A stretch of DNA of 26,962 nt, from the NCBI GenBank assembly GCA_964427565.1, contig CAYRVO010000001.1, positions 1 through 26,962 of the forward strand, given 5' to 3'. How positions within the stretch are numbered: position 1 is the first letter of the stretch; every line of letters begins with the position of its first letter. The DNA comes from an uncultured Halanaerobiales bacterium (lineage in GTDB: Bacteria > Bacillota > Halanaerobiia > Halanaerobiales > JADQBU01). A program made the translations under genes and the position numbers. The notes under the pieces are model-generated. The model was not told where the DNA came from, did not search any database, and saw nothing but the letters and a program-made list of their open reading frames with translations. Shown in pieces: positions 1-11,439 of this stretch.

Positions 1-713
1 TTTGTTATTTTTAATATGGAAGGTACAGCAGAAGCTATAGTATTATCTGTAGGTAGATAAAAAGCATCTACTTTATCTACAAGAGAAGAAGCAGCTAGGC
101 CAACTTCACTGGTATTAGTGACAGTACCTTCTACAATTTCTAGTCCAAGTTCAGGTGCGACTTCTTTAGCCACATCAACCTGAACAACTGAATTTACTTC
201 ACCAGAATTGTATAAAATACCTATTTTTTTAGCATCAGGTACAAATTCCTTAATTAAAGCTAACTGTTCAGCAATAGGGTTCATATCATTGGTACCTGTG
301 ATATTACCCTGTGGATTTTCGAGACTTTCGACTAAACCGGCTGCTACTGGATCAGTTACAGCGGTAATTAATAGTGGAATTTCTTTTACAACATTGGCAG
401 CTGCCTGAGCACTTTTAGTAGTAATAGCCAGAATTAAATCTGTGTCGCTTTCCTTGAATTGTCGGGCTATTGATTGGGCAGTAGCAAAATCGGCCTGAGC
501 ATTTTTTACTTTAATTTTGATATTATCTCCATCCACAAATCCCTTTTCAGCCAGAGCATCAATAAATCCATTGCGGGCATTATCCAGTGCAGGGTGTTCA
601 ACAAGCTGTGAAATTCCTATTGTATAATCCTGAGCAGCCACCGTTACACTGAAAAGTAATAAAGCAATTACAAGAACCGACATTAGTAATACTAGTTGTG
701 ATTTTTTTACCAT
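1..713 (-). CDS. ABC transporter substrate-binding protein, ABC_sub_bind (Trp/Tyr-type) family; 3' end runs off the window
   Basis: Not in the ORF track because no stop falls in the window. Hand translation from ATG 713: MVKKSQLVLLMSVLVIALLLFSVTVAAQDYTIGISQLVEHPALDNARNGF...ITAVTDPVAAGLV...NITGTND...PTDNTIASA, which are hallmark motifs of the family. SD AGGAGG at 724-729 on the minus strand. Confidence 0.9.
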   Translation of the reverse strand, partial: MVKKSQLVLLMSVLVIALLLFSVTVAAQDYTIGISQLVEHPALDNARNGFIDALAEKGFVDGDNIKIKVKNAQADFATAQSIARQFKESDTDLILAITTKSAQAAANVVKEIPLLITAVTDPVAAGLVESLENPQGNITGTNDMNPIAEQLALIKEFVPDAKKIGILYNSGEVNSVVQVDVAKEVAPELGLEIVEGTVTNTSEVGLAASSLVDKVDAFYLPTDNTIASAVPSILKIT

Positions 714-758
714 AAATATTAATCCTCCTTATAATATTTGTTTTGGTAGGAGGAAATT

Positions 759-788
759 AAAAAAACACACACCTGTAGGAGTGTGTGT
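759..788 (-). terminator. Intrinsic terminator inside the ABC gene leader (attenuator)
   Basis: Minus strand ACACACAC-tcctacag-GTGTGTGT followed by 6 more T. It lies between the promoter (854-883) and the start codon (713). Confidence 0.8.
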
Positions 789-804
789 AGACATAATTAG
801 TCCA

Positions 805-843
805 CTAAATATTTTTAACTCCTACCATAATACCATAATACAT
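805..843 (-). other. Candidate leader peptide MYYGIMVGVKNI*
   Basis: ATG TAT TAT GGT ATT ATG GTA GGA GTT AAA AAT ATT TAG, starting 3-5 nt after the predicted TSS. It has no SD. Codons 6-9 cover the strand that competes with the terminator. Confidence 0.3.
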
Positions 844-853
844 AATTTAATTA

Positions 854-883
854 ATTATATAATTTATAAAGTGGGATTGTCAA
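854..883 (-). promoter_or_regulatory. sigmaA promoter for the ABC gene
   Basis: Minus strand TTGACA (883-878) - N18 - TATAAT (859-854); both hexamers match consensus exactly. Confidence 0.8.
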
Positions 884-1104: not shown

Positions 1105-1914
1105 ATGGATGATATAAAAAAAGTAGCAGATATAATAAATAAACAGATTGATATAAAACCGGAAATCGGGCTTATTCTTGGTTCAGGTCTGGGTGTAATG
1201 GCGAATGAAATAGAAGATCCAGTATATATTAATTATAGTGATTTACCGAGTTTTCCAGTTTCAACTGTTAAAGGACACAGGGGTAGATTTGTAATTGGTA
1301 GTCTGGATGGTAAAAATATTATTGCTATGCAGGGCAGATTTCACTATTATGAAGGATATACAATGCAGGACATTGTATTACCTGTAAGGATAATGAGTTT
1401 ATTGGGAGTTAAAAAATTAATTGTAACAAATGCAGCTGGAGGTATTAATTTAAATTATAAAGCAGGTAGATTTATGCTGATAACTGATCACATAAATTTA
1501 ATGGGTGATAATCCTCTACGTGGTAAAAATATAGATGAATTTGGGCCCCGTTTTCCTGATATGACAGAAGCCTACAATAAGGATTTAATATCAGTTGCCG
1601 AGAAAGTAGCGGCAGATAAGGGAATTATTGTAAATAAAGGTATATATGCAGGATTGGGTGGTCCTAATTATGAAACACCTGCAGAAATAAGATATTTGCG
1701 CAATTGTGGTGCAGATGCAGTCGGAATGTCAACAATACCGGAAGTAATAGTTGCCAATCATATGAGTATGAAGGTGCTTGGTATATCGTGTATTACAAAT
1801 ATGGCTGCCGGGGTATTACCTGAACCTTTGAATCATGAAGAAGTGATGAAAATTGCTGAAAAGGTAAAACCTAAATTTATTCTACTGCTAAGAACTATTT
1901 TGAAAAGATTATAA
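1105..1914 (+). CDS. punA: Purine-nucleoside phosphorylase (trimeric type)
   Basis: 269 aa; ILGSGLG, GHRG, QGRFHYYEGY, TNAAGG, GPNYETPAE, GADAVGMST, TNMAAG; SD GGGAGG. Confidence 0.95.
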   Translation: MDDIKKVADIINKQIDIKPEIGLILGSGLGVMANEIEDPVYINYSDLPSFPVSTVKGHRGRFVIGSLDGKNIIAMQGRFHYYEGYTMQDIVLPVRIMSLLGVKKLIVTNAAGGINLNYKAGRFMLITDHINLMGDNPLRGKNIDEFGPRFPDMTEAYNKDLISVAEKVAADKGIIVNKGIYAGLGGPNYETPAEIRYLRNCGADAVGMSTIPEVIVANHMSMKVLGISCITNMAAGVLPEPLNHEEVMKIAEKVKPKFILLLRTILKRL

Positions 1915-1940
1915 GAACAGTTCACAATGGAGGGATAAGT

Positions 1941-3248
1941 ATGCGTGCCTATGATATTATCTTAAAGAAAAGAAATGGTAAAGAGCTATCAGAACAAGAG
2001 ATAAAATTTTTAATAAATGGATATATAGAAGGGGAAATTCCTGATTATCAGATTTCCGCCTGGGCAATGGCTGTCTATTTCCAGGGTATGAGTGCGGAAG
2101 AGATAACAATTTTAACACAGGTTATGGCAGAATCAGGTGTTATGATAGATCTTAGTAGAATTATCGGTCCTAAGATTGACAAACACAGTACAGGTGGTGT
2201 AGGTGATACAACGAGCCTTATACTTGTTCCTCTTGTTGCAGCTGCTGGAGTTCCAGTAGCTAAAATGTCAGGTAGAGGTCTGGGACATACAGGGGGTACC
2301 ATTGATAAATTGGAATCTATTCCCGGTTTAAGGACAAATTTGACGATTCAGGAATTTACCACTCAAGTTAATAAAATAGGAATTGCAATTGCCGGACATA
2401 CGGGTAATCTTACTCCGGCAGATAAAATGCTTTATTCTTTAAGAGATGTAACAGCAACAGTCGATTCCATACCACTTATTGCCAGTAGCATTATGAGTAA
2501 AAAAATAGCAGGTGGCACAGATGGGATAGTACTTGATGTAAAAATCGGTAGTGGAGCATTCATGAAAAAAATTGAAGATGCTTATAAACTGGCTGAGACT
2601 ATGGTAAAAATAGGAAAACAGGTTAAAAAAAATACAATTGCAGTAATTACCGATATGGATCAGCCACTTGGTCTGGCTATTGGTAATTCACTTGAAGTAA
2701 AGGAAGCAGTAAATATATTGTCTGGTGAAGGTCCTGAAGATTTGCGTGAACTCTGTCTAACTTTGGGAGCAAATATGCTTTTATTAGCAGAAAAAGTACA
2801 GGATTCAAAAGAAGGATATAATAAGTTAGAAGCAATACTTAAAAGAGGTAAGGGATTAAATAAATTTGCTGAATTTGTTGAAGCTCAGGGTGGAAACCCG
2901 GAATTAATAAATAATTTAAATCTTTTACCAGAAGCAGAAAAAAAGATAGATATATGCTGTGAAAGTTCGGGCTATATAAAAAAAATAGATGCGCTAGCTG
3001 TTGGTAATGCTGCTATGTTAGCAGGTGCAGGTAGAGAGAAAAAAGGAGATAAAATTGATATGGCAGCAGGTGTAAAATTAAAGAAAAAATGTGGAGATAG
3101 GGTTAATAAAGGAGATATTGTTGCTGTATTACACAGTAATAAAAAAATGTCAGAGCTAAAACAGGTTTTTGACATTTTAAAAGATGCATTTGAAATTGGG
3201 AAAAACGGGCAACAAAAAACAGAATTAATTAATGATATATTAAAGTAA
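1941..3248 (+). CDS. pdp: Pyrimidine-nucleoside phosphorylase
   Basis: 435 aa; DKHSTGGVGD, KMSGRGLGHTGGTIDKLESIPG, LRDVTATV, SIMSKK. Confidence 0.96.
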   Translation: MRAYDIILKKRNGKELSEQEIKFLINGYIEGEIPDYQISAWAMAVYFQGMSAEEITILTQVMAESGVMIDLSRIIGPKIDKHSTGGVGDTTSLILVPLVAAAGVPVAKMSGRGLGHTGGTIDKLESIPGLRTNLTIQEFTTQVNKIGIAIAGHTGNLTPADKMLYSLRDVTATVDSIPLIASSIMSKKIAGGTDGIVLDVKIGSGAFMKKIEDAYKLAETMVKIGKQVKKNTIAVITDMDQPLGLAIGNSLEVKEAVNILSGEGPEDLRELCLTLGANMLLLAEKVQDSKEGYNKLEAILKRGKGLNKFAEFVEAQGGNPELINNLNLLPEAEKKIDICCESSGYIKKIDALAVGNAAMLAGAGREKKGDKIDMAAGVKLKKKCGDRVNKGDIVAVLHSNKKMSELKQVFDILKDAFEIGKNGQQKTELINDILK

Positions 3249-3390
3249 GTACTTGTATTTTAAAAATAGTGATCTCAAATATTCTATTTTCCTATCTACG
3301 AAAGTTATAACATTTGCATAAAATACCTTCCTGGTTAATAGATATTACTGAATGAATGTAAATTTATTTAACCCGGGAGGGAGAGACAGG

Positions 3391-4599
3391 ATGTTTAATT
3401 TTAAAAGTGTAATAACTATATTTTTAATGATTGTTTTGTTTTCAGTACCTGTTTTGGCTGAACAGCCTGATTTTAAATTAACTGCCAGTTCAGCATTATT
3501 AATGGAAGCAGATACAGGCGAAATATTGTATGCCAGGAATGAACATAAAAGATTACCTCCTGCCAGTATGACGAAAGTTATGACAATGCTCCTGGTTATG
3601 GAGGCTATTGATGAAGGAAGAGCTCAGCTTAATGATAAGCTACTGGTTAGTGAAAGGGCTGCAAGTATGGGGGGGTCACAGGTATATCTGGAACCGGGTG
3701 AAGAAATCACATTAGAAAATGCAATGAAAGCAATTGCTATATCTTCTGCAAATGATGCCTGTGTAGCAGTGGCAGAATATATATCAGGAACTGAAAAAGA
3801 CTTTATTGAAGCAATGAATGAAAAAGCAGAGAAATTAAATTTAAGAGATACGTATTACTATAATACTAATGGTTTACCTCCATCTGATCCAGAAATTAAA
3901 GGTAATTTTACAAGTGCCTATGATCTAGCTCGATTGACTCGGGAAATAATAAAATATCCCCAGATCTTTGAATGGACTTCAACCTGGATAGATTATATTA
4001 GAGAAGGTGAATTTGTACTTAATAATACAAACTGGCTTGTAAGACATTACAAAGGTGTAAATGGGTTAAAAACAGGTTATACTCAGGAAGCTGGGTTTTG
4101 TGTTACCTGTACATCTCAGAAGAAAAATTTAAATTTTATATCTGTTATTATGAATGCAAAATCTTCTAAAAAGCGTTTTTCTGAAGCTGCAAAATTATTA
4201 TCCTATGGCTATAATTCTTATGAAAGTATTATTATTGCTAAAAAGGGAGAGAAAATAGAAGATGTAAAAATAGCTAATGGATGTAAACAGGAAGCTTCAA
4301 TTGTTGTACCTACTAAAATAACTGTTGCTGTTAGAAAAGGAGAAGAAGAAAAGATAAATAAAGAGATTATTGTCAATAAAAATTTAAAAGCCCCCTTAAA
4401 AAAAGGAGATACAACGGGAATACTCAATATTTATAATGGTAATTTAAAAATTAAAGAAGTAGAATTAACAATAAATAGAGAAGTAAAAGCAGCCTCTATT
4501 TTTCAGATAATTATGAGGATATTAAAAAATCTTTATATTATTTTAACTAAAATATTTTTTGGAGAAGGAATTAGGAATTTTTTGCTGAATAAAATATAA
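3391..4599 (+). CDS. dacF: D-alanyl-D-alanine carboxypeptidase (peptidase S11), DacF-like
   Basis: SxxK in PASMTK, SAN and KTG motifs, signal peptide. Start moved from 3352 to ATG 3391, which follows SD GGGAGG. Position upstream of spoIIA matches dacF. Confidence 0.88.
   Translation: MFNFKSVITIFLMIVLFSVPVLAEQPDFKLTASSALLMEADTGEILYARNEHKRLPPASMTKVMTMLLVMEAIDEGRAQLNDKLLVSERAASMGGSQVYLEPGEEITLENAMKAIAISSANDACVAVAEYISGTEKDFIEAMNEKAEKLNLRDTYYYNTNGLPPSDPEIKGNFTSAYDLARLTREIIKYPQIFEWTSTWIDYIREGEFVLNNTNWLVRHYKGVNGLKTGYTQEAGFCVTCTSQKKNLNFISVIMNAKSSKKRFSEAAKLLSYGYNSYESIIIAKKGEKIEDVKIANGCKQEASIVVPTKITVAVRKGEEEKINKEIIVNKNLKAPLKKGDTTGILNIYNGNLKIKEVELTINREVKAASIFQIIMRILKNLYIILTKIFFGEGIRNFLLNKI
4566..4590 (+). 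promoter_or_regulatory. sigmaH-type promoter for the NAPRT-like gene, embedded in the dacF 3' end
   Basis: gaAGGAATT (4566-4572) - N14 - GAAT (4587-4590). Confidence 0.6.
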
Positions 4600-4603
4600 T
4601 AAT

Positions 4604-4612
4604 TGATATAAT
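4604..4612 (+). promoter_or_regulatory. Extended -10 sigmaA promoter for the NAPRT-like gene
   Basis: TGaTATAAT 18 nt before the ATG and just upstream of SD GAGGTG; no well-spaced -35. Confidence 0.5.
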
Positions 4613-4629
4613 CTGAGAGGTGACAGCAA

Positions 4630-5958
4630 ATGACAGTATTTAATGGTGAAAGATTACCGGTTGAGATTTTTCAAATAGATAAAGAAAGAATGGTAAATGG
4701 CTGGTATTCTGATGTTTATTTTCGTAATATAGCAAAATTACTTACTAGATTATCAAAGGAAGGATATACTTTTGAAGAAGAAGATATCGGCAATATAGAA
4801 GTTGAAATGCAGATATTCCCCAGGCGTAAGCCGTTTTGTATACTGGGTGGAGTTGATGAAGCTCTGGCAATTTTGCGGAATGCTACAGGTTACAGAAATA
4901 ATAAGGGAAATTATATTAGTACATTTAGTAATTTAGAGGTTGAAGCATGTCCGGATGGTATAAAGGCTTATTATCGAGGAAATCCCAAAAATGTTGAACC
5001 AGTAATGAAAATAAAGGGAAGGTATAGAGATTTTGCCATACTGGAAACACCTATTCTTGGTTCTTTAACAGAGGCCTCAAGGATAGCTACTAATGTTTTT
5101 GAAATCATTAAGGCTGCCCGAGGGAAAGATATTCTATTTTTCCCTGCGCGTTTTGCCCATTATAAACTACAGGCATTACATGGATATGCCTATTCCCTGG
5201 GAGTAAAGGCCTACAATACTCAGTACGGAACTAATAGTCACAGATATATCTCCACAGATGAGCAGGGTGCCTGGTGGGGAGGTAAAGGAGGGGGTACGAT
5301 AAGTCACTCCTATATAGCTGCTTTTTTAGGTAATACTGCTGAATCTATGTTACAGTTTTCACGTTTAATGCCTTTGAAGGTAAATAGGATTGCCCTGGTA
5401 GATTTCAAGAATGACTGTGTACGGACAAGTTTAAAAGTGTTGAAGGATATGTTCTATAAATATAATAAATTATTGAAAGATGGTAAAAATAAAGAAGCTG
5501 AAAAATATAAATTATATGGTATTAGGCCTGATACATCTTCAAATTTAAGGGATAAAAGTATTGAACCTTTGGGTGATAAAAAGCTGGACAATGGTGTTAA
5601 TGCACGTCTTATTTTTAAATTAAGAAAAAAAATTGATAATGCTTATAAAGAGTGGAATATAAATAAAGAAGATAAAAAAATTGCCTACCAGTACTGTCAT
5701 GATGTAAAGATTATTGCTACTGGTGGATTTGATCCCGAAAAGATAAATGAATTTGAGAAATCTCAGGTCCCTGTAGATGTCTATGGTGTAGGAAGCTGGC
5801 TTTTATCAAATAGTTCTCTAGAAGGGACAAGTAGTGATTTTACTGCTGATGTTGTCAGAGTAAAGAAAGATGGTAAATGGATAGATATGGCTAAATATGG
5901 AAGATGCCCCTGTGATAATAATAATTTAGAAAGAATACCTGATGATTATGGAAATTAG
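4630..5958 (+). CDS. pncB: Nicotinate phosphoribosyltransferase-like type II PRTase
   Basis: 442 aa; SDVYF, FFPARFAH, GTISHS (position of the phospho-His), ALVDF, GIRPDTS, IIATGGF, YGVGS. Family is clear; exact substrate is not. Confidence 0.72.
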   Translation: MTVFNGERLPVEIFQIDKERMVNGWYSDVYFRNIAKLLTRLSKEGYTFEEEDIGNIEVEMQIFPRRKPFCILGGVDEALAILRNATGYRNNKGNYISTFSNLEVEACPDGIKAYYRGNPKNVEPVMKIKGRYRDFAILETPILGSLTEASRIATNVFEIIKAARGKDILFFPARFAHYKLQALHGYAYSLGVKAYNTQYGTNSHRYISTDEQGAWWGGKGGGTISHSYIAAFLGNTAESMLQFSRLMPLKVNRIALVDFKNDCVRTSLKVLKDMFYKYNKLLKDGKNKEAEKYKLYGIRPDTSSNLRDKSIEPLGDKKLDNGVNARLIFKLRKKIDNAYKEWNINKEDKKIAYQYCHDVKIIATGGFDPEKINEFEKSQVPVDVYGVGSWLLSNSSLEGTSSDFTADVVRVKKDGKWIDMAKYGRCPCDNNNLERIPDDYGN

Positions 5959-5982
5959 ATTAGTATTTATATTGTTAACTTC

Positions 5983-6009
5983 ACTACCGTTTTACTGGCG
6001 GTAGTTTTT
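5983..6009 (+). terminator. Intrinsic terminator after the NAPRT-like gene
   Basis: ACTACCGT-tttactg-GCGGTAGT followed by a T tract. Confidence 0.85.
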
Positions 6010-6137
6010 GTTTTTCATGTAAAGTGTGGAAGTTTTCTTTAATAACTTAACTTCTGGAAATGAATAATATTTTCAATTATGTTTTCAAGTGTTCAATCAT
6101 TTTAAATTGTCTATTGATAAAAATAAGAATGTAATTA

Positions 6138-6183
6138 TTCGTAAATGCAGAAATAAAAAGGTATTTTCTTCCTTATCAAGAAT
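6138..6183 (+). promoter_or_regulatory. sigmaH promoter of spoIIA with an upstream Spo0A-box-like site
   Basis: aaAGGTATT (6159-6165) - N14 - GAAT (6180-6183). TTCGTAA at 6138-6144 reads TTACGAA on the minus strand, one mismatch from TGNCGAA. spoIIA is known to be sigmaH/Spo0A-driven. Confidence 0.7.
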
Positions 6184-6224
6184 ATAATAAATCAAAGGAA
6201 ATTATTAATAAGGGAGGAAAAATA

Positions 6225-6575
6225 TTGAATATTAATTATGCGCAAAAAGGTGATTTTCTTATATTTAGATTGTATGGTGAGTTGGACATGAATACAGTAC
6301 CGGATTTTAAAAAAAAGATTAATAAATTGAGAAAAGAAAAAAGGATAAATAATATAATAATAAATCTAAGTAAAATTAAATTTATTGACAGTACAGGTAT
6401 AGGTGCAATTCTTGGTAGATATAAAAAACTCAAGAAAAATAATGGCCAATTAGTATTAGTTGGGGTTAATAAAAGAGTAGAAAAAATTTTTGCTTTATCG
6501 GGTATTACTGGATTGATTCCAATTTATGATAAAGAAAAAACAGCAATTTCTGAGTATAATAAAGGAGGCAAATAA
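6225..6575 (+). CDS. spoIIAA: Anti-sigma F factor antagonist (STAS)
   Basis: 116 aa, TTG start with SD GGGAGG; RLYGELD, FIDSTGIGAILGRYK with the phospho-acceptor Ser retained. Confidence 0.93.
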   Translation: MNINYAQKGDFLIFRLYGELDMNTVPDFKKKINKLRKEKRINNIIINLSKIKFIDSTGIGAILGRYKKLKKNNGQLVLVGVNKRVEKIFALSGITGLIPIYDKEKTAISEYNKGGK

Positions 6576-6576
6576 T

Positions 6577-7017
6577 ATGGACAACCATGCACAATTAACA
6601 ATAGTAAGCAAAAGTAAGAATATAGGACTGGCCAGAATAGCTGTTTCTACATTTGCCTCAGAAATAGATTTCACCTTAAATGAGCTTGAGGAAATTAAGG
6701 TTGCAGTTTCAGAAGCTGTTACAAATAGTGTTATCCATGGTTATGCACATTCAAAGGGCAATATAATTATGAAGATGGAAATTGAAGATAAAAAATTGCA
6801 GGTTGTTGTAATTGATCATGGTATAGGAATAGCAGATTTGGAAGCTGTTTTGCAACCATCATATTCAACAAAAGAAGAACATATGGGGCTAGGTTTTGCT
6901 TTTATAGAATCCTTCATGGATGATTTTAAAGTTGAATCTGAGGAAGGTAAAGGAACTTCTGTTTATATGACAAAAATACCGGAACGTAACAACAGGGCAG
7001 AAAATCAGGGGGGCTAA
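6577..7017 (+). CDS. spoIIAB: Anti-sigma F factor (GHKL kinase)
   Basis: EIKVAVSEAVTNSVIHGY, DHGIGI, MGLGF, GKGT. True start is ATG 6577 after AAGGAGG, not 6526. Confidence 0.94.
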   Translation: MDNHAQLTIVSKSKNIGLARIAVSTFASEIDFTLNELEEIKVAVSEAVTNSVIHGYAHSKGNIIMKMEIEDKKLQVVVIDHGIGIADLEAVLQPSYSTKEEHMGLGFAFIESFMDDFKVESEEGKGTSVYMTKIPERNNRAENQGG

Positions 7018-7020
7018 AAG

Positions 7021-7791
7021 TTGGATAATAATATAATTGACCTCCCTGGAGTAAACTTATTAAAAGAAAAAGAAACAAAAAACTATATAAAAAAAGCACA
7101 GCATGGTAATAGTAAAGCTCTCAATAAGTTAATAAAACACAATTTACGACTTGTATTAAAAATGACTTACAGATTTAAAAACTCAAAATATGATCTCCAG
7201 GATTTATTTCAGATTGGGGTTATTGGCTTAATAAAAGCTGTTAAGGGTTTCGATTTAGAAAGAAATGTAAAATTTTCTACTTATGCTGTTTCCAGAATAC
7301 TGGGAGAAATAAAACTTTTTATGCGTGATGAAGGAATAATTAAGGTAAGTAGAAATTTGAAGAAAATTGGCAGAATAGTTAGAAAAAGAGAAGAAGAATA
7401 TAAAAAGAAATATGGTCGAGCACCAACTATTAATGAAATATCTGAAATAACAGGTTTTACGAAGCAAAAGATTATTAGAGCAATGGAAGCCAATAAATAT
7501 CCTACTTCTATTAATAAGGAAATTTATGAGAAAGAAGGACAAAAGCTTTATCTGGTAGATAGTATAGAGGATGAGGAAGCAAGAGATAAAATTGAAAATC
7601 TGGACCGTGTAACACTTTACAATTTGATACAAAATTTAGAAAAACGGGAAAGAAAGATTATATATTTGCGTTATTTTGAGGATAAAACTCAGGCAGAAAT
7701 AGGAAAAGAAATAGGAGTTTCTCAGGTACAGGTATCAAGATTAATAAAAAAAATATTGGCTGAGTTGCGTAAAAAGATAAATACCCAATAA
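7021..7791 (+). CDS. sigF: Sporulation sigma factor F
   Basis: 256 aa; DLFQIGVIGLIKAV, FSTYAV, DKTQAEIGKEIGVSQVQVSRL; third gene of spoIIA. Confidence 0.92.
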   Translation: MDNNIIDLPGVNLLKEKETKNYIKKAQHGNSKALNKLIKHNLRLVLKMTYRFKNSKYDLQDLFQIGVIGLIKAVKGFDLERNVKFSTYAVSRILGEIKLFMRDEGIIKVSRNLKKIGRIVRKREEEYKKKYGRAPTINEISEITGFTKQKIIRAMEANKYPTSINKEIYEKEGQKLYLVDSIEDEEARDKIENLDRVTLYNLIQNLEKRERKIIYLRYFEDKTQAEIGKEIGVSQVQVSRLIKKILAELRKKINTQ

Positions 7792-7806
7792 TGGGTATTT
7801 TTTTTT
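7779..7806 (+). terminator. Intrinsic terminator overlapping the sigF stop codon
   Basis: AAATACCCA-ataa-TGGGTATTT plus further T; the TAA stop sits in the loop. Confidence 0.85.
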
Positions 7807-7835
7807 GTATATTTTTAGACTTTAATAAAATAATA
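7807..7835 (+). promoter_or_regulatory. Possible sigmaG-type promoter for the small ORF/spoVA unit
   Basis: GTATA (7807-7811) - N17 - AATAATA (7829-7835). AT-rich context makes this weak. Confidence 0.3.
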
Positions 7836-7890
7836 TAACTAGGTTCTAATATTTACGACTCTTTCATATTCAACTTAAGTACGGCCTGCT

Positions 7891-7919
7891 TTGATTTAAT
7901 CTACTGAGGATTTAATCAA
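7891..7919. repeat. Imperfect inverted repeat with 11-bp arms
   Basis: TTGATTTAATC-tactgag-GATTTAATCAA; 10 of 11 positions pair. Confidence 0.6.
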
Positions 7920-7964
7920 TTATGAAAAATTTCTATTGTGAAATTTGCTTATTTAATAACAGAG

Positions 7965-8084
7965 GTGAAAAAAATCAAAAAATATATACTTTTGCTATTG
8001 TTATTTATTATTATGGCTGCTGTAGTGTATTTGATAGGTCTAAATTATGGTGAACATATTCCGGCAGATGCATTAAAAATATAA
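7965..8084 (+). CDS. Small single-pass membrane or secreted protein (36-39 aa)
   Basis: GTG 7965: (V/M)KKIKKYILLLLLFIIMAAVVYLIGLNYGEHIPADALKI*. Basic N-terminus, about 20 hydrophobic residues, SD-like AGAGGTGA. Below the ORF-track cut-off. Confidence 0.6.
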   Translation: MKKIKKYILLLLLFIIMAAVVYLIGLNYGEHIPADALKI

Positions 8085-8138
8085 CCATCTAAAAAGTTGT
8101 AAGTTGAATTTATAAAGTAAATTAAGGAGTAGTTAAAT

Positions 8139-8588
8139 GTGGATAATATAAATAAAACTCCAGATCAGTACCGGAGATTGATTAGTAAAATTAAACCACC
8201 TGTTCATAAGATCAAAAATATTATCAAAGCATTTATTATAGGTGGACTAATCTGTGTTGTAGGTCAATCTTTTTGGAATATATATAAACAATTAAATTTA
8301 TCTCAAGATAATGCCGGAGTAATGGCTACAATTACAATGATATTTCTGGGGGGCTTGTTTACCGGGCTGGGTGTCTATGATGAACTTGGACAGTTTGCCG
8401 GTGCAGGTTCAATAGTTCCCATAACCGGTTTTGCTAATGCTATGGTCTCTCCAGCTATGGAATATAAACAGGAAGGTTTAATTTCTGGACTGGGAACAAA
8501 ATTATTTAATGTTGCTGGTCCGGTTATTACTTATGGGATGGTATCTGCATTTATTATAGGCTTAGTAAAAGTTGTACTGGCGGTGTAA
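8139..8588 (+). CDS. spoVAC: Stage V sporulation protein AC
   Basis: 149 aa, GTG start; AFIIGGLICVVGQ, GVYDELGQFAGAGSIVPITGFANAM, AGPVITYG. Confidence 0.95.
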   Translation: MDNINKTPDQYRRLISKIKPPVHKIKNIIKAFIIGGLICVVGQSFWNIYKQLNLSQDNAGVMATITMIFLGGLFTGLGVYDELGQFAGAGSIVPITGFANAMVSPAMEYKQEGLISGLGTKLFNVAGPVITYGMVSAFIIGLVKVVLAV

Positions 8589-8590
8589 GG

Positions 8591-9606
8591 ATGGCAAAAA
8601 ATATAGAGGGTCAAAGTTTAACATTTGAAACTAGACCAGGTGTTTTTGGTTATGGTACAGTTGGTGGTCCTGAGGAAGGAAAAAGTCCCCTCAGTAATAA
8701 ATTTGATTTAATTTATGAGGACGCACGTTGTGGAGAGAAAACCTGGGAACTGGGCGAAATGAAGATGGTCAAAAAAGCTATTGACTATGCTCTTGGCAGA
8801 GCAAGCCTGGATAAAAATAGTATTGATATTATTCTGGGGGGCGATCTTTTAAATCAGATAGTTGTTTCGAATTTTACAGCACGTAATTTAAGTATTCCTT
8901 TTCTTGGATTTTATGGAGCCTGTTCTACCATGATAGAGGTATTGCTTGTTGGTAGTTTACTTATTGATGGTAATTATGCCGATAATATTATGGGCTTTAG
9001 TTCCAGTCATTATCAAACTGCCGAAAGACAATTTAGAACACCTTTAGAATATGGAGATCAATATCCGCCAACAAAACAATGGACAATTACAGGTGCAGGT
9101 GCATATATTCTTGACCAAAATAGAGGAGAAGTTGTAATAACTCAGGGCACTATTGGTAAGGTTATTGATCTGGGAATTAATGATAGTAATGATCTGGGCT
9201 CTGCAATGGCTCCGGCTGCAGCTGATACGATATTACAACATTTCAGTGATCTTGATCGAGGCCCTCAGGACTATGACCTGATAATTACTGGTGATTTAGG
9301 AAGAGTGGGTAAAGATGTACTTAGGGCTTTGATGCAGGAAAAGAAATGTGATCCCGGTGATAAATTAAAAGATTGTGGTTCAATGATCCTAAAAATAAAA
9401 AAAAATATGGTGCTGGTGGTAGTGGTTGTGCAGCAACAGCTCTTGCTCTGGGTAGTATATTTATTCCCAAATTGATAGAAGGGAATATTAGAAGGATTCT
9501 TGTGGTAGGTACAGGTGCCCTTATGAATCCCTTAATATTGAACCAGAATGAAACAATTCCTGCTATAGCTCATGCGGTTGTTATTGAAAGGAGTATGAAT
9601 GGGTAA
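8591..9606 (+). pseudogene. spoVAD: Stage V sporulation protein AD, split by a -1 frameshift near 9389-9405
   Basis: ORF 8591-9475 carries GGDLLNQ, GACST, AERQFR..EYG, LGSAMAPAAA, TGDLG, DCG. The AGGSGC...ILVVGTGALM..ETIPAIAHAV C-terminus lies in ORF 9373-9606. One added base gives a 338-aa protein. Confidence 0.9.
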
Positions 9607-9952
9607 TTACTTTACAGCTTTTTTAGTTGGGGGTTTTATCTGTGCTATTAGTCAAATAATACTTGATAATACTAAATATACTCCAGCACATTTATTGGTA
9701 GGATTAGTTATAGCTGGTTCTTTACTGACCGGTCTCGGTTATTATCAACCATTAATTGAATTTGCAGGTGCGGGAGCTACAATACCGGTAGCAAATTTTG
9801 GACATATACTTACTAAAGGTGTATTACTGGAAGCCAAAAAAGATGGTTTGTTAGGTCTTTTTAAAGGTGTATTTGAAATTGCTAGTGCTGGTATTAGTGC
9901 TTCAATTATTATAGCTTTTTTTATTGCTCTTATTTTTGATCCGAAGAGGTGA
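9599..9952 (+). CDS. spoVAE: Stage V sporulation protein AE (SpoVAEb type)
   Basis: 117 aa; AFLVGGFICAISQ, TPAH, YQPLIEFAGAGATIPVANFGH. Confidence 0.92.
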   Translation: MGNYFTAFLVGGFICAISQIILDNTKYTPAHLLVGLVIAGSLLTGLGYYQPLIEFAGAGATIPVANFGHILTKGVLLEAKKDGLLGLFKGVFEIASAGISASIIIAFFIALIFDPKR

Positions 9953-11439
9953 AATATTTGCAAAAAAGATCCCTGAGTAAAAATCTAGATAAAAATATGG
10001 ATATATTAAAAAAGGAATTGGGAGCAGATGAAAGTTTTGATGTATTGACTCGTGGTTTTTATATAGGTCGTAAAAAAGCAGGTCTTTTATTTATTGATGG
10101 TTTTATAAAAGATGATATAATACATGTTCTTAGGGAATTAATGAATAGTGAAAGCAAAAATATTAGTGTAAATACCCTCAAAAAAATTATTCAAAAAAGA
10201 TTACCATATTATGAAATAAGTATTGTCAATAGTATGGAGGAGATAATTGATGAAGTATTAACAGGCCCTCAGGCATTACTAATAGATGGCTTAAAACAGG
10301 CTATAATTATTGATGCCCGACAGTGGTTAAGCCGTTCTCCGGAAGAACCTGAACTTGAAAAGGCAACCCGGGGTCCGGCAGATGGTTTTGTAGAGACAAT
10401 GCTTTTTAATGTTAATGCCGTGAGAAGAAGAATTAGGGATGTTAAGTTCAGGGCAGAGGTCTTAAAAGTAGGTAAAAGGTCTAAAAATGATATAGCCTTA
10501 TTATATATAAAGGATATAATTAATCCCGATCTTGTTAAAAATATAAAAGATAAATTAAATAATGTAGATATTGATGGTATACCTCTTGCTGATAAATCTG
10601 TAGAAGAAATAATTACAGGTGGTACTTTAAATCCTTTACCACTGGTTAGATATACAGAAAGGCCAGACAATGTTACTGCCCATATACTTGAAGGCCATCT
10701 GGCGATTATTGTAGACAACTCACCGACAGCTTTAATTTTGCCAGCACCATTTTTTGCCCATATTCAGACCCTGGAATTGTATAGGAAGAGTACAATAGTC
10801 GGTACATATTTATCTCTTACTAGAATATTGGCTATATTTGTCTCTGTTTTTTTACCGGCGATTTGGCTACTGGCTGCTACCAACCAGGATTTACTCCCAG
10901 AATATCTTGCTTTTATAGGGCCCAAACAGGAGAGTACAATTGGACTGGGTATTCAATTTATTTTAGCAAGTCTTGGTATTGATTTAATTAGAATGGCTTC
11001 CATACAGGTACCAGGGACAATGGCAACTTCTCTAAGTTTAATAGGGGCTTTAATACTGGGTGATTTTGCTGTGAAAGTTGGTCTCTTTTCTCCAGAAGTT
11101 ATTTTATATATGGCAATTGCTGCTATAGGAAACTTTGCTATTCCGGGTTATGAGCTGGCATTAGTTTTAAAAATGATAAGATTTGCATTTTTGATTTCAG
11201 TAATCATTGCTAATATATGGGGCTTTATTATTGTGCTATTACTGTTATTAATCTGGATGGCATTTACAAAGACATTTGGTGTTTATTATCTCTGGCCGTT
11301 GATTCCTTTCAATTTTCAGGGATTAAAATCTTTTTTTGTTACAGAGACTGTACTGGATGTATCCCATATTAGGCCGGAAGCTTATAATGTACAAGATAAA
11401 GATAGGGCTGTAAAGGATGAAGATGAGAATAAGAAATAA
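9949..11439 (+). CDS. spoVAF: SpoVAF / GerA-family spore membrane protein
   Basis: 496 aa, GTG start overlapping spoVAE; RSPEEPELEKATRGPADGFVET, RYTERPD, LEGH...VDNSP, C-terminal TM bundle. Confidence 0.9.
   Translation: MKYLQKRSLSKNLDKNMDILKKELGADESFDVLTRGFYIGRKKAGLLFIDGFIKDDIIHVLRELMNSESKNISVNTLKKIIQKRLPYYEISIVNSMEEIIDEVLTGPQALLIDGLKQAIIIDARQWLSRSPEEPELEKATRGPADGFVETMLFNVNAVRRRIRDVKFRAEVLKVGKRSKNDIALLYIKDIINPDLVKNIKDKLNNVDIDGIPLADKSVEEIITGGTLNPLPLVRYTERPDNVTAHILEGHLAIIVDNSPTALILPAPFFAHIQTLELYRKSTIVGTYLSLTRILAIFVSVFLPAIWLLAATNQDLLPEYLAFIGPKQESTIGLGIQFILASLGIDLIRMASIQVPGTMATSLSLIGALILGDFAVKVGLFSPEVILYMAIAAIGNFAIPGYELALVLKMIRFAFLISVIIANIWGFIIVLLLLLIWMAFTKTFGVYYLWPLIPFNFQGLKSFFVTETVLDVSHIRPEAYNVQDKDRAVKDEDENKK

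Follow-up and report, generated by a model that had tools for sequence, protein, structure and literature searches.

A conserved leader switch upstream of an amino-acid importer gene in Halanaerobiales and its linkage to HutP-like proteins

We analysed a stretch of 26,962 nucleotides (nt) of an uncultured Halanaerobiales bacterium (contig CAYRVO010000001.1; hereafter the window), in which the leader of a gene for an ATP-binding cassette (ABC) amino-acid importer lies on the minus strand. Comparison with related loci confirmed this leader as a real and conserved element, with the predicted architecture of a switch acting on both a terminator and a ribosome-binding site (RBS). Related leaders share a triple repeat that is linked to genes of the HutP family and to genes of aromatic amino-acid supply. 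We regard it as probable that a HutP-like protein carrying an aromatic amino acid binds the triple repeat and represses the importer by attenuation at two levels. Conservation and covariation of the elements, enrichment of the repeat, its linkage to HutP-like and aromatic amino-acid genes, the HutP fold and leader-length contigs from an orthologue form the established basis from which we infer that the protein binds the repeats, which effector it uses and in which direction it regulates.

Results

A preliminary description of this DNA had placed a promoter, a 5' element with two alternative partners, a terminator, a Shine-Dalgarno sequence (SD) and its complement (anti-SD) in the leader, and inspection of the sequence located every one of them on the minus strand. 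The -35 hexamer TTGACA (878-883) and the -10 hexamer TATAAT (854-859) jointly match the consensus at 12 of 12 positions with an 18-nt spacer, and from this spacing alone transcription is predicted to start near 847; an equivalent promoter lies just 5' of the repeats in relatives. The 5' element TGGTAGGAGT (827-818) has the core GUAGGAGU (818-825), of which DNA ACTCCTAC at 782-775 is a perfect 8-bp complement. The corresponding RNA, ACUCCUAC (775-782), is the 3' strand of a putative antiterminator and overlaps the 5' arm and loop of an intrinsic terminator (759-788). This terminator comprises a hairpin (788-765, -12 kcal/mol) and a U-tract (764-759), and it is the sole terminator-like site in 500-1300. 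DNA CTCCTACCA at 752-744 is likewise a perfect 9-bp complement of 827-819. In the RNA this second partner, CUCCUACCA, overlaps the anti-SD UCCUCCU (754-748; 744-754 with the partner), which is kept in the two closest relatives, L081 and L082, and is perfectly complementary to the SD AGGAGGA (729-723) of the importer gene. The gene starts with ATG at 713-711, and its 5' part of 237 codons (1-713) is truncated by the window edge. The leader thus has the layout of an intrinsic-terminator attenuator, with a hairpin and U-tract between promoter and gene and a mutually exclusive upstream pairing. A small hairpin, GUGGAC/GUCUAC (787-805), is predicted inside the antiterminator, its sequence being kept only in the close clade. 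Just 5' of the terminator the sequence UAUGUCU(A/U) (786-796) is kept in L082 and in the group of L002, L004, L007, L008 and L010, and is missing from L081 and from the group of L001, L009 and L012.

The predicted folds agree with a two-tier arrangement. The predicted folding energy of the 144-nt leader is -36.3 kcal/mol (z = -3.55), a stability that none of 200 shuffled sequences reached. For nascent RNA extending to 774, co-transcriptional folding gave the antiterminator 825-818/782-775 as the minimum-energy structure (-16.3 kcal/mol). In the fold predicted after read-through (-31.7 kcal/mol), the same 5' element and an A-run pair with the U-tract and CCUCCUACCA, and the SD is open. Blocking 841-818, as a mimic of bound protein, raised the predicted pairing probability of the window SD from 0.27-0.28 to 0.97-0.99 (0.28 to 0.97 in one calculation and 0.27 to 0.99 in another). 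For 28 non-identical leaders the mean predicted SD pairing was 0.77 when the repeats were blocked, compared with 0.38 when they were free and 0.39 when other 24-nt windows were blocked. A 7-mer with two perfect downstream partners arose in 130 of 5000 dinucleotide shuffles (2.6%); by itself such a 7-mer is unusual but not decisive, and the decisive support for the predicted switch is comparative.

For this comparison we assembled 80 genomic orthologue loci together with L081 and L082, whose importer proteins are 78-81% identical to that of the window. The leaders of L081 and L082 share the window architecture, and the same leader logic was found in Halanaerobiales, Thermoanaerobacterales and other Clostridia. 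What these leaders have in common is not a folded domain: it is an array of three tandem 8-nt units with the consensus GUARNAYG, the third reading GUAGG(R)(R). In the window, unit 1 (834-841) and unit 2 (826-833) both read GUAUUAUG and, on the evidence of the position-weight matrix (G-U-A-R-N-A-Y-G, period 8), belong to a proposed protein-binding site. Unit 3 (818-825) is the GUAGGAGU core, which also supplies the 5' side of the antiterminator and, later, that of the predicted helix with the anti-SD. The 5' element, which the preliminary description had treated as isolated, is therefore centred on the last unit of a repeat array. A strict pattern for the triple (G[UC]A-N5-G[UC]A-N5-G[UC]AG) occurred in 32 of 83 orthologous leaders, with a single further hit when both strands of the other 1.3 Mb from these loci were counted. 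Unit 3 is the best conserved unit, with GUAGG in 28 of these 32 leaders. The triple repeat is the only conserved sequence 5' of the terminator, and the spacer between the two varies in sequence and, at ~10 to 90 nt, in length.

Both pairings of unit 3 are supported by covariation, which had been named as a check on the proposed switch. In most leaders the duplex between unit 3 and the 5' arm of the terminator has a predicted energy of -8 to -13 kcal/mol. Cognate pairs of unit 3 and arm averaged -9.65 kcal/mol, compared with -8.54 kcal/mol for non-cognate pairs, and 37 of 20000 permutations equalled the cognate mean. Where the window pairs GUAGGAGU with ACUCCUAC, compensatory variants pair GGUAGGAG with CUCUUACC in L013, GUAGGAA with UUCCUGC in L077, GUAGGUGUG with CACCCCUGC in L076 and AGUGGG with CCCACU in L023. 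In leaders that have no terminator, it is the 3' flank of unit 3 that covaries with the anti-SD, as GGGAA/UUCCC in L014, L096, L180 and L208 and as GGGAU/AUCCC in L034. Conservation and covariation thus bear out the claim that a single 5' element competes with the terminator and then with the anti-SD, and extend it beyond the window. The accompanying caveat, that the competitor invades only 2 bp of the terminator stem, is particular to the window: the invasion reaches 4-9 positions of the terminator 5' arm in the leaders of relatives, and the window, with a terminator stem extended by AC/GU, is an outlier.

A second placement of the repeat was found at start codons. In 9 loci a period-8 triple lies exactly at -13 and spans the SD, the AUG and codon 2 (GGAGGAUGGUAGUAUGGUAGG), such that the SD is formed by unit 1 and the start codon by the A-Y-G of unit 2, with codon 2 opening unit 3. 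The MVGK N-termini of the encoded proteins are conserved because the triple runs through the start codon and codon 2. A possible second repeat set, GGAGAGAUGUAAAAUGGUAAUUAAUGGUAAG, was also seen from -13 to ~+20 of the start codon in L002 (~3973-4005), L004 and L007, with units GGAG, GUAA and GUAA at period 8 and another GGUAAG 10 nt further on. By eye, similar GGUAA repeats occur at the start codons of L008, L010 and L003, and the window has a lone AUGGUAA (713-707). Repeats placed at the start codon in this way might be contacted by the other face of a hexamer.

The genes upstream of the importer provided a candidate for the factor that reads the repeat. In 20 of 82 related loci the 4 kb upstream of the importer gene contain a gene of 132-152 amino acids; 19 of these genes lie within ~500 nt, 18 of them on the same strand, and in the leaders inspected a promoter is located between the two genes. 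The encoded protein matches the Pfam family PF09021 (HutP) at E ~1e-45, with values of 1e-43 to 1e-47 for eight adjacent open reading frames (ORFs). The motif shows a strong association with an adjacent hutP-like gene (18/2 against 14/48; odds ratio of 31 with p = 1e-7). No hutP-like gene adjoins the leader in the window or its clade. In the organism of L081, the HutP-like protein P0136 is encoded by a stand-alone gene ~30 kb from the importer on the same 63,699-nt contig. Stand-alone genes of this kind are common in Thermoanaerobacter, Thermoanaerobacterium, Sporomusa and others, which makes a trans-acting regulator plausible for the window. The AlphaFold model of P0136 has a predicted local distance difference test (pLDDT) score of 90, and template modelling (TM) scores of 0.72-0.80 to the HutP crystal structures 1VEA, 1WPV, 4OK9 and 1WMQ. 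Only this fold search connected the HutP-like branch with solved HutP; alignment by hhalign to a HutP sequence of B. subtilis yielded a negligible probability, and NCBIfam contains no model for the branch. HutP-like proteins of this branch are present in Halanaerobiales, Thermoanaerobacterales, many Clostridia and Negativicutes. In L083 (1-6635), from a relative of the window's organism, the stand-alone hutP-like gene adjoins a type I-C-like CRISPR-Cas set (cas3, cas5d, csd1, cas7, cas4, cas1) and a gene for a WYL-domain regulator.

The regulated gene had been described as part of an amino-acid importer, and its product is indeed a PF04392 amino-acid ABC binding protein (E = 5.5e-64), with genes for a permease and an ATPase 3' of it in relatives. 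Its closest solved relative is CD0873 (6HNI, E = 1e-84), a protein that binds tyrosine (PMC6816091). The cut-off of the TrpX equivalog NF041285 (390 bits) was not reached, the closest full-length relative, P0001, scoring 313 bits. Some Halanaerobium genomes (L005, L210) carry a second PF04392 paralogue. That of H. congolense (P0081, L210) has no motif and no adjacent permease or ATPase gene, and so was uninformative; because its leader has a consensus promoter with neither repeats nor terminator, only one PF04392 paralogue appears to belong to the regulon. In L081 (9453-12972) a convergent trp operon, read on the minus strand and identified by Pfam as trpA, trpB, trpF, trpC and trpD, follows the importer operon and is a further link to aromatic amino acids.

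Targets other than the importer point in the same direction. An operon of Halonatronum saccharophilum (L084) opens with the hutP-like gene and also encodes chorismate mutase, an aminotransferase, DAHP synthase, prephenate dehydrogenase and EPSP synthase; GUAG repeats of less regular spacing and a terminator precede it. The strict motif lies 5' of DAHP synthase genes in L102 and L183. The near-identical contigs L127 and L153, from an organism of 70% GC, carry a hutP-like gene, then the motif and a terminator, then a chorismate mutase gene, followed in L127 by genes for DAHP synthase, prephenate dehydrogenase and EPSP synthase. Gene content therefore suggests that the effector is an aromatic amino acid: biosynthetic and importer targets, together with the relatedness to CD0873, make tyrosine the leading candidate. 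L136, in which the motif and a downstream HMGL-like gene are 295 nt apart, was left as a doubtful target. On the contig of L183, positions 53-127 match a group II intron domain (Rfam RF00029, 43.6 bits).

An unbiased scan of metagenome contigs with the pattern GTARNAYGGTARNAYGGTAGG was heavily contaminated. Simple (GGTAGGAY)n octamer arrays, mostly on GC-rich contigs, accounted for 35 strand-hits, a further 52 lay inside long ORFs, and only ~20 hits resembled real leaders. These leader-like hits had a PF04392 gene downstream in 12 cases and a HutP-like gene immediately upstream in 11, and they included L102, L183, L127 and L153. The octamer arrays appear unrelated to the Firmicute leaders. They form long tandem runs of GGTAGGAC/GGTAGGAT in L092, L113 (>50 units), L124, L137, L147, L155, L192 and L202, on contigs mostly of 50-70% GC, and in L202, L117, L109 and L125 inverted arrays, (GTAGGACG)n ... 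(CGTCCTAC)n, surround genes in the manner of a REP-type intergenic element.

Transcript evidence came from an orthologue. The window sequence itself was not found in any RNA run searched; a 108-nt contig from a run of unknown type (X5) corresponds to 760-864, ending at the U-tract and beginning 5' of the predicted transcription start. Three contigs of ~135 nt, from at least two variants of the sequence, were recovered in two salt-lake metatranscriptomes for L012, the orthologous leader of Halanaerobium. They are products of assembly and do not amount to mapped 3' ends; they cover 3765-3897, from ~8 nt past the predicted start to inside the terminator U-run (3891-3898). In run X10 the leader contigs had a depth of 249, compared with 6-7 for contigs just downstream, and one L012 contig spans the terminator. 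This pattern is as would be expected of an abundant terminated leader RNA with some read-through.

Divergent from the importer gene, the plus strand of the window (1105-11439) encodes nucleoside phosphorylases for purines and for pyrimidines and a D-Ala-D-Ala carboxypeptidase. Beyond these lie spoIIAA/spoIIAB/sigF-like genes, spoVAC, spoVAD and a member of the GerA family, which mark the organism as a spore-forming Halanaerobiales-like Firmicute.

Discussion

In the mechanism that we propose, the first ~30 nt of the transcript would present the three GUARNAYG units (841-818) as the site for one three-fold face of a HutP-family protein, which in the window's clade would be encoded elsewhere in the genome. 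When no protein is bound, unit 3 would pair co-transcriptionally with its partner at 782-775 and weaken the terminator; after read-through it would re-pair with 752-744 and hold the anti-SD, leaving the SD free and allowing the importer to be made. When protein is bound, presumably loaded with an aromatic amino acid and most likely with tyrosine, unit 3 would be unavailable, the terminator would form and transcription would stop near 759. In any RNA that was nevertheless read through, the anti-SD (754-748) would pair with the SD (729-723) and translation would be blocked.

Several observations weigh against this proposal. No HutP-like gene was found in the 27-kb window, and its presence in the genome is inferred from a relative. 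Identity of the HutP-like branch to solved HutP is only 13-21%, and neither phmmer nor a 27-sequence HutP-like profile gave a HutP match at E <= 1 in the PDB. The repeat itself departs from expectation in two respects: units 1 and 2 of the window clade carry U or C (GUAU, GUAC; GUAU in the window) where most leaders have R, and the repeat has period 8, a core GUA(R) and a conserved A-Y-G spacer, whereas the hut site is UAG-N4 with period 7. In the window, the terminator conformer is predicted to be ~3 kcal/mol more stable than the antiterminator once the 3' arm has emerged, so read-through there would have to be decided kinetically. The depths of the Logan contigs are poor measures of expression, and the contigs derive from mixed strains. 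Finally, B. subtilis HutP acts as an antiterminator and activator (PMC2425495), a sign opposite to that proposed here.

This last point raises the possibility that the same protein acts at the same site in the opposite sense, effector-loaded binding preventing termination and inducing the importer. Although the known antiterminator shares its fold and Pfam family with the proteins described here, and a substrate-induced importer would be plausible for catabolism, we consider this unlikely. Unit 3 is the antiterminator strand, and a protein bound to it should therefore favour the terminator; there is no conserved second XAG site in or past the terminator; and in the nine loci with a triple over the SD, AUG and codon 2, occupancy could only repress. 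Induction by an end product would also make no sense for DAHP synthase, chorismate mutase and prephenate dehydrogenase, whose genes follow the motif. Taken together, the triples at -13, the role of unit 3 as antiterminator and the biosynthetic targets favour a co-repressor resembling TRAP over activation as by B. subtilis HutP. It is also conceivable, but in our judgement quite unlikely, that another multimeric RNA-binding protein, such as a TRAP-like ring or some further factor, binds the repeats and that the linkage to HutP-like genes is coincidental. The logic is indeed that of TRAP, the targets are aromatic amino-acid genes, and 14 of 32 motif-bearing genome loci have no adjacent hutP-like gene. 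Three units at period 8 are, however, unlike the TRAP site, which consists of 9-11 (G/U)AG triplets spaced 2-3 nt apart, the adjacency has strong statistical support and is seen again in independent lineages and for two types of target, and HutP-like genes are found elsewhere in genomes that lack the adjacency. Three repeats also fit one face, with three-fold symmetry, of the HutP hexamer (PMC2425495).

The preliminary description had interpreted the leader as an undescribed cis-regulatory RNA with neither a T-box nor a known riboswitch class. The searches agreed with the latter part: against Rfam 15 no family reached the gathering threshold in the whole window, no T-box (RF00230) was found at E <= 10 in 650-1110 and nothing was found in 13 related loci, the only matches being to snoRNAs or CRISPR repeats at chance level, far below gathering scores. 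As to the former, no earlier description was found in the literature consulted, but sensing by the RNA itself is probably wrong, since there is no aptamer-like conservation. A leader that binds a metabolite, or responds to ions, temperature or polymerase speed, would account for the lack of a regulator gene in the window, for folding significantly better than shuffled sequences and for the conserved alternative pairings. We nevertheless rate it as very unlikely: upstream conservation takes the form of a linear triple repeat and not of a structured pocket, the spacer to the terminator is variable, the motif also occurs unstructured over RBSs and start codons, and no Rfam family matches. Linkage of the repeat to an adjacent HutP-family gene suggests instead that the sensor is most likely a trans-acting protein. 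Ribosome-mediated attenuation through a Tyr-rich leader peptide, MYYGIMVGVKNI (AUG UAU UAU GGU AUU AUG GUA GGA GUU AAA AAU AUU UAG, 843-805), is hardly credible. The window does contain this in-frame ORF of 12 codons with two Tyr codons right after the AUG, but it has no SD, its AUG is only ~4 nt from the predicted 5' end, and what look like codons merely reflect the AUGGUA repeat. The peptide was rejected because it is not conserved in L081 or L082, in which the AUG is missing (UUUAGUAUUAUGG).

Beyond the window, we lean towards the view that a large branch of the HutP fold is a tyrosine- or aromatic-responsive attenuation protein acting on triple GUARNAYG, which represses aromatic biosynthesis operons and a Tyr-type importer through antiterminator or RBS block and is an independent evolutionary counterpart of TRAP; our confidence in this is only a little above even. 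The system is apparently undescribed: in the literature available to us, which included few subscription journals, we found no account of the element, of HutP homologues outside Bacillus hut operons or of a link between HutP and aromatic amino acids, and earlier work may exist. Very few examples are known of attenuation by RNA-binding proteins that are loaded with an amino acid, the main ones being TRAP, PyrR and HutP. If our view is correct, a widespread system would explain control of aromatic amino-acid supply and uptake in many anaerobic Firmicutes that lack TRAP, and thousands of proteins annotated as "hut operon positive regulator" would be reassigned to another regulon with the opposite sign. 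Its 24-nt RNA operator, compact and simply coded, would also be of use for genome annotation and as a synthetic-biology part. With operator, regulator and candidate effectors named, the question would be directly testable.

The closest functional parallel is TRAP (MtrB), which exerts dual control over the B. subtilis trp operon by termination and by sequestration of the trpE SD. In the system proposed here, an amino-acid-loaded multimeric protein would likewise bind tandem leader repeats that overlap the antiterminator, so that the terminator forms, and the same binding event would let an SD-sequestering hairpin form in read-through RNA. At other targets the repeats lie directly over the RBS, and the regulon again comprises aromatic amino-acid biosynthesis and uptake. 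The regulator differs in having a HutP-like fold where TRAP is a beta-ring, and three 8-nt GUARNAYG units do not constitute a TRAP site. Where TRAP acts on trp genes, the targets here belong to the common and Tyr-branch pathway or encode a PF04392 importer, and the hosts are Halanaerobiales, Clostridia and Negativicutes.

With the hut system the leaders share the PF09021 family and fold (TM up to 0.80), a (candidate) regulator gene that is often, though not in the window's clade, directly upstream of the regulated leader, and three short purine-containing repeats (XAG in hut) upstream of a terminator. Differences lie in the site, which here overlaps the antiterminator and so implies repression, and in the targets, aromatic amino-acid genes as opposed to histidine utilisation under antitermination activated by L-histidine and Mg2+. 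The RNA site of HutP consists of three XAG motifs 4 nt apart, in two sites flanking the terminator stem (PMC2425495); the present leaders lack this two-site arrangement, having no conserved second site in the terminator.

Importers of the trpX type, also of PF04392, are known under T-box control, for example TrpX of Streptococcus suis (PMC9382623). Transporter family, terminator/antiterminator output and physiological purpose are the same as here, but the present leader is only ~135 nt long, has no Stem I, specifier or T-box sequence, and would be read by a protein where the T-box senses uncharged tRNA. In pyr operons, PyrR is similarly an effector-loaded protein that shifts the balance between antiterminator and terminator towards termination; PyrR binds a structured anti-antiterminator hairpin, whereas in the leaders described here the proposed site is a linear repeat, which doubles as the antiterminator strand.

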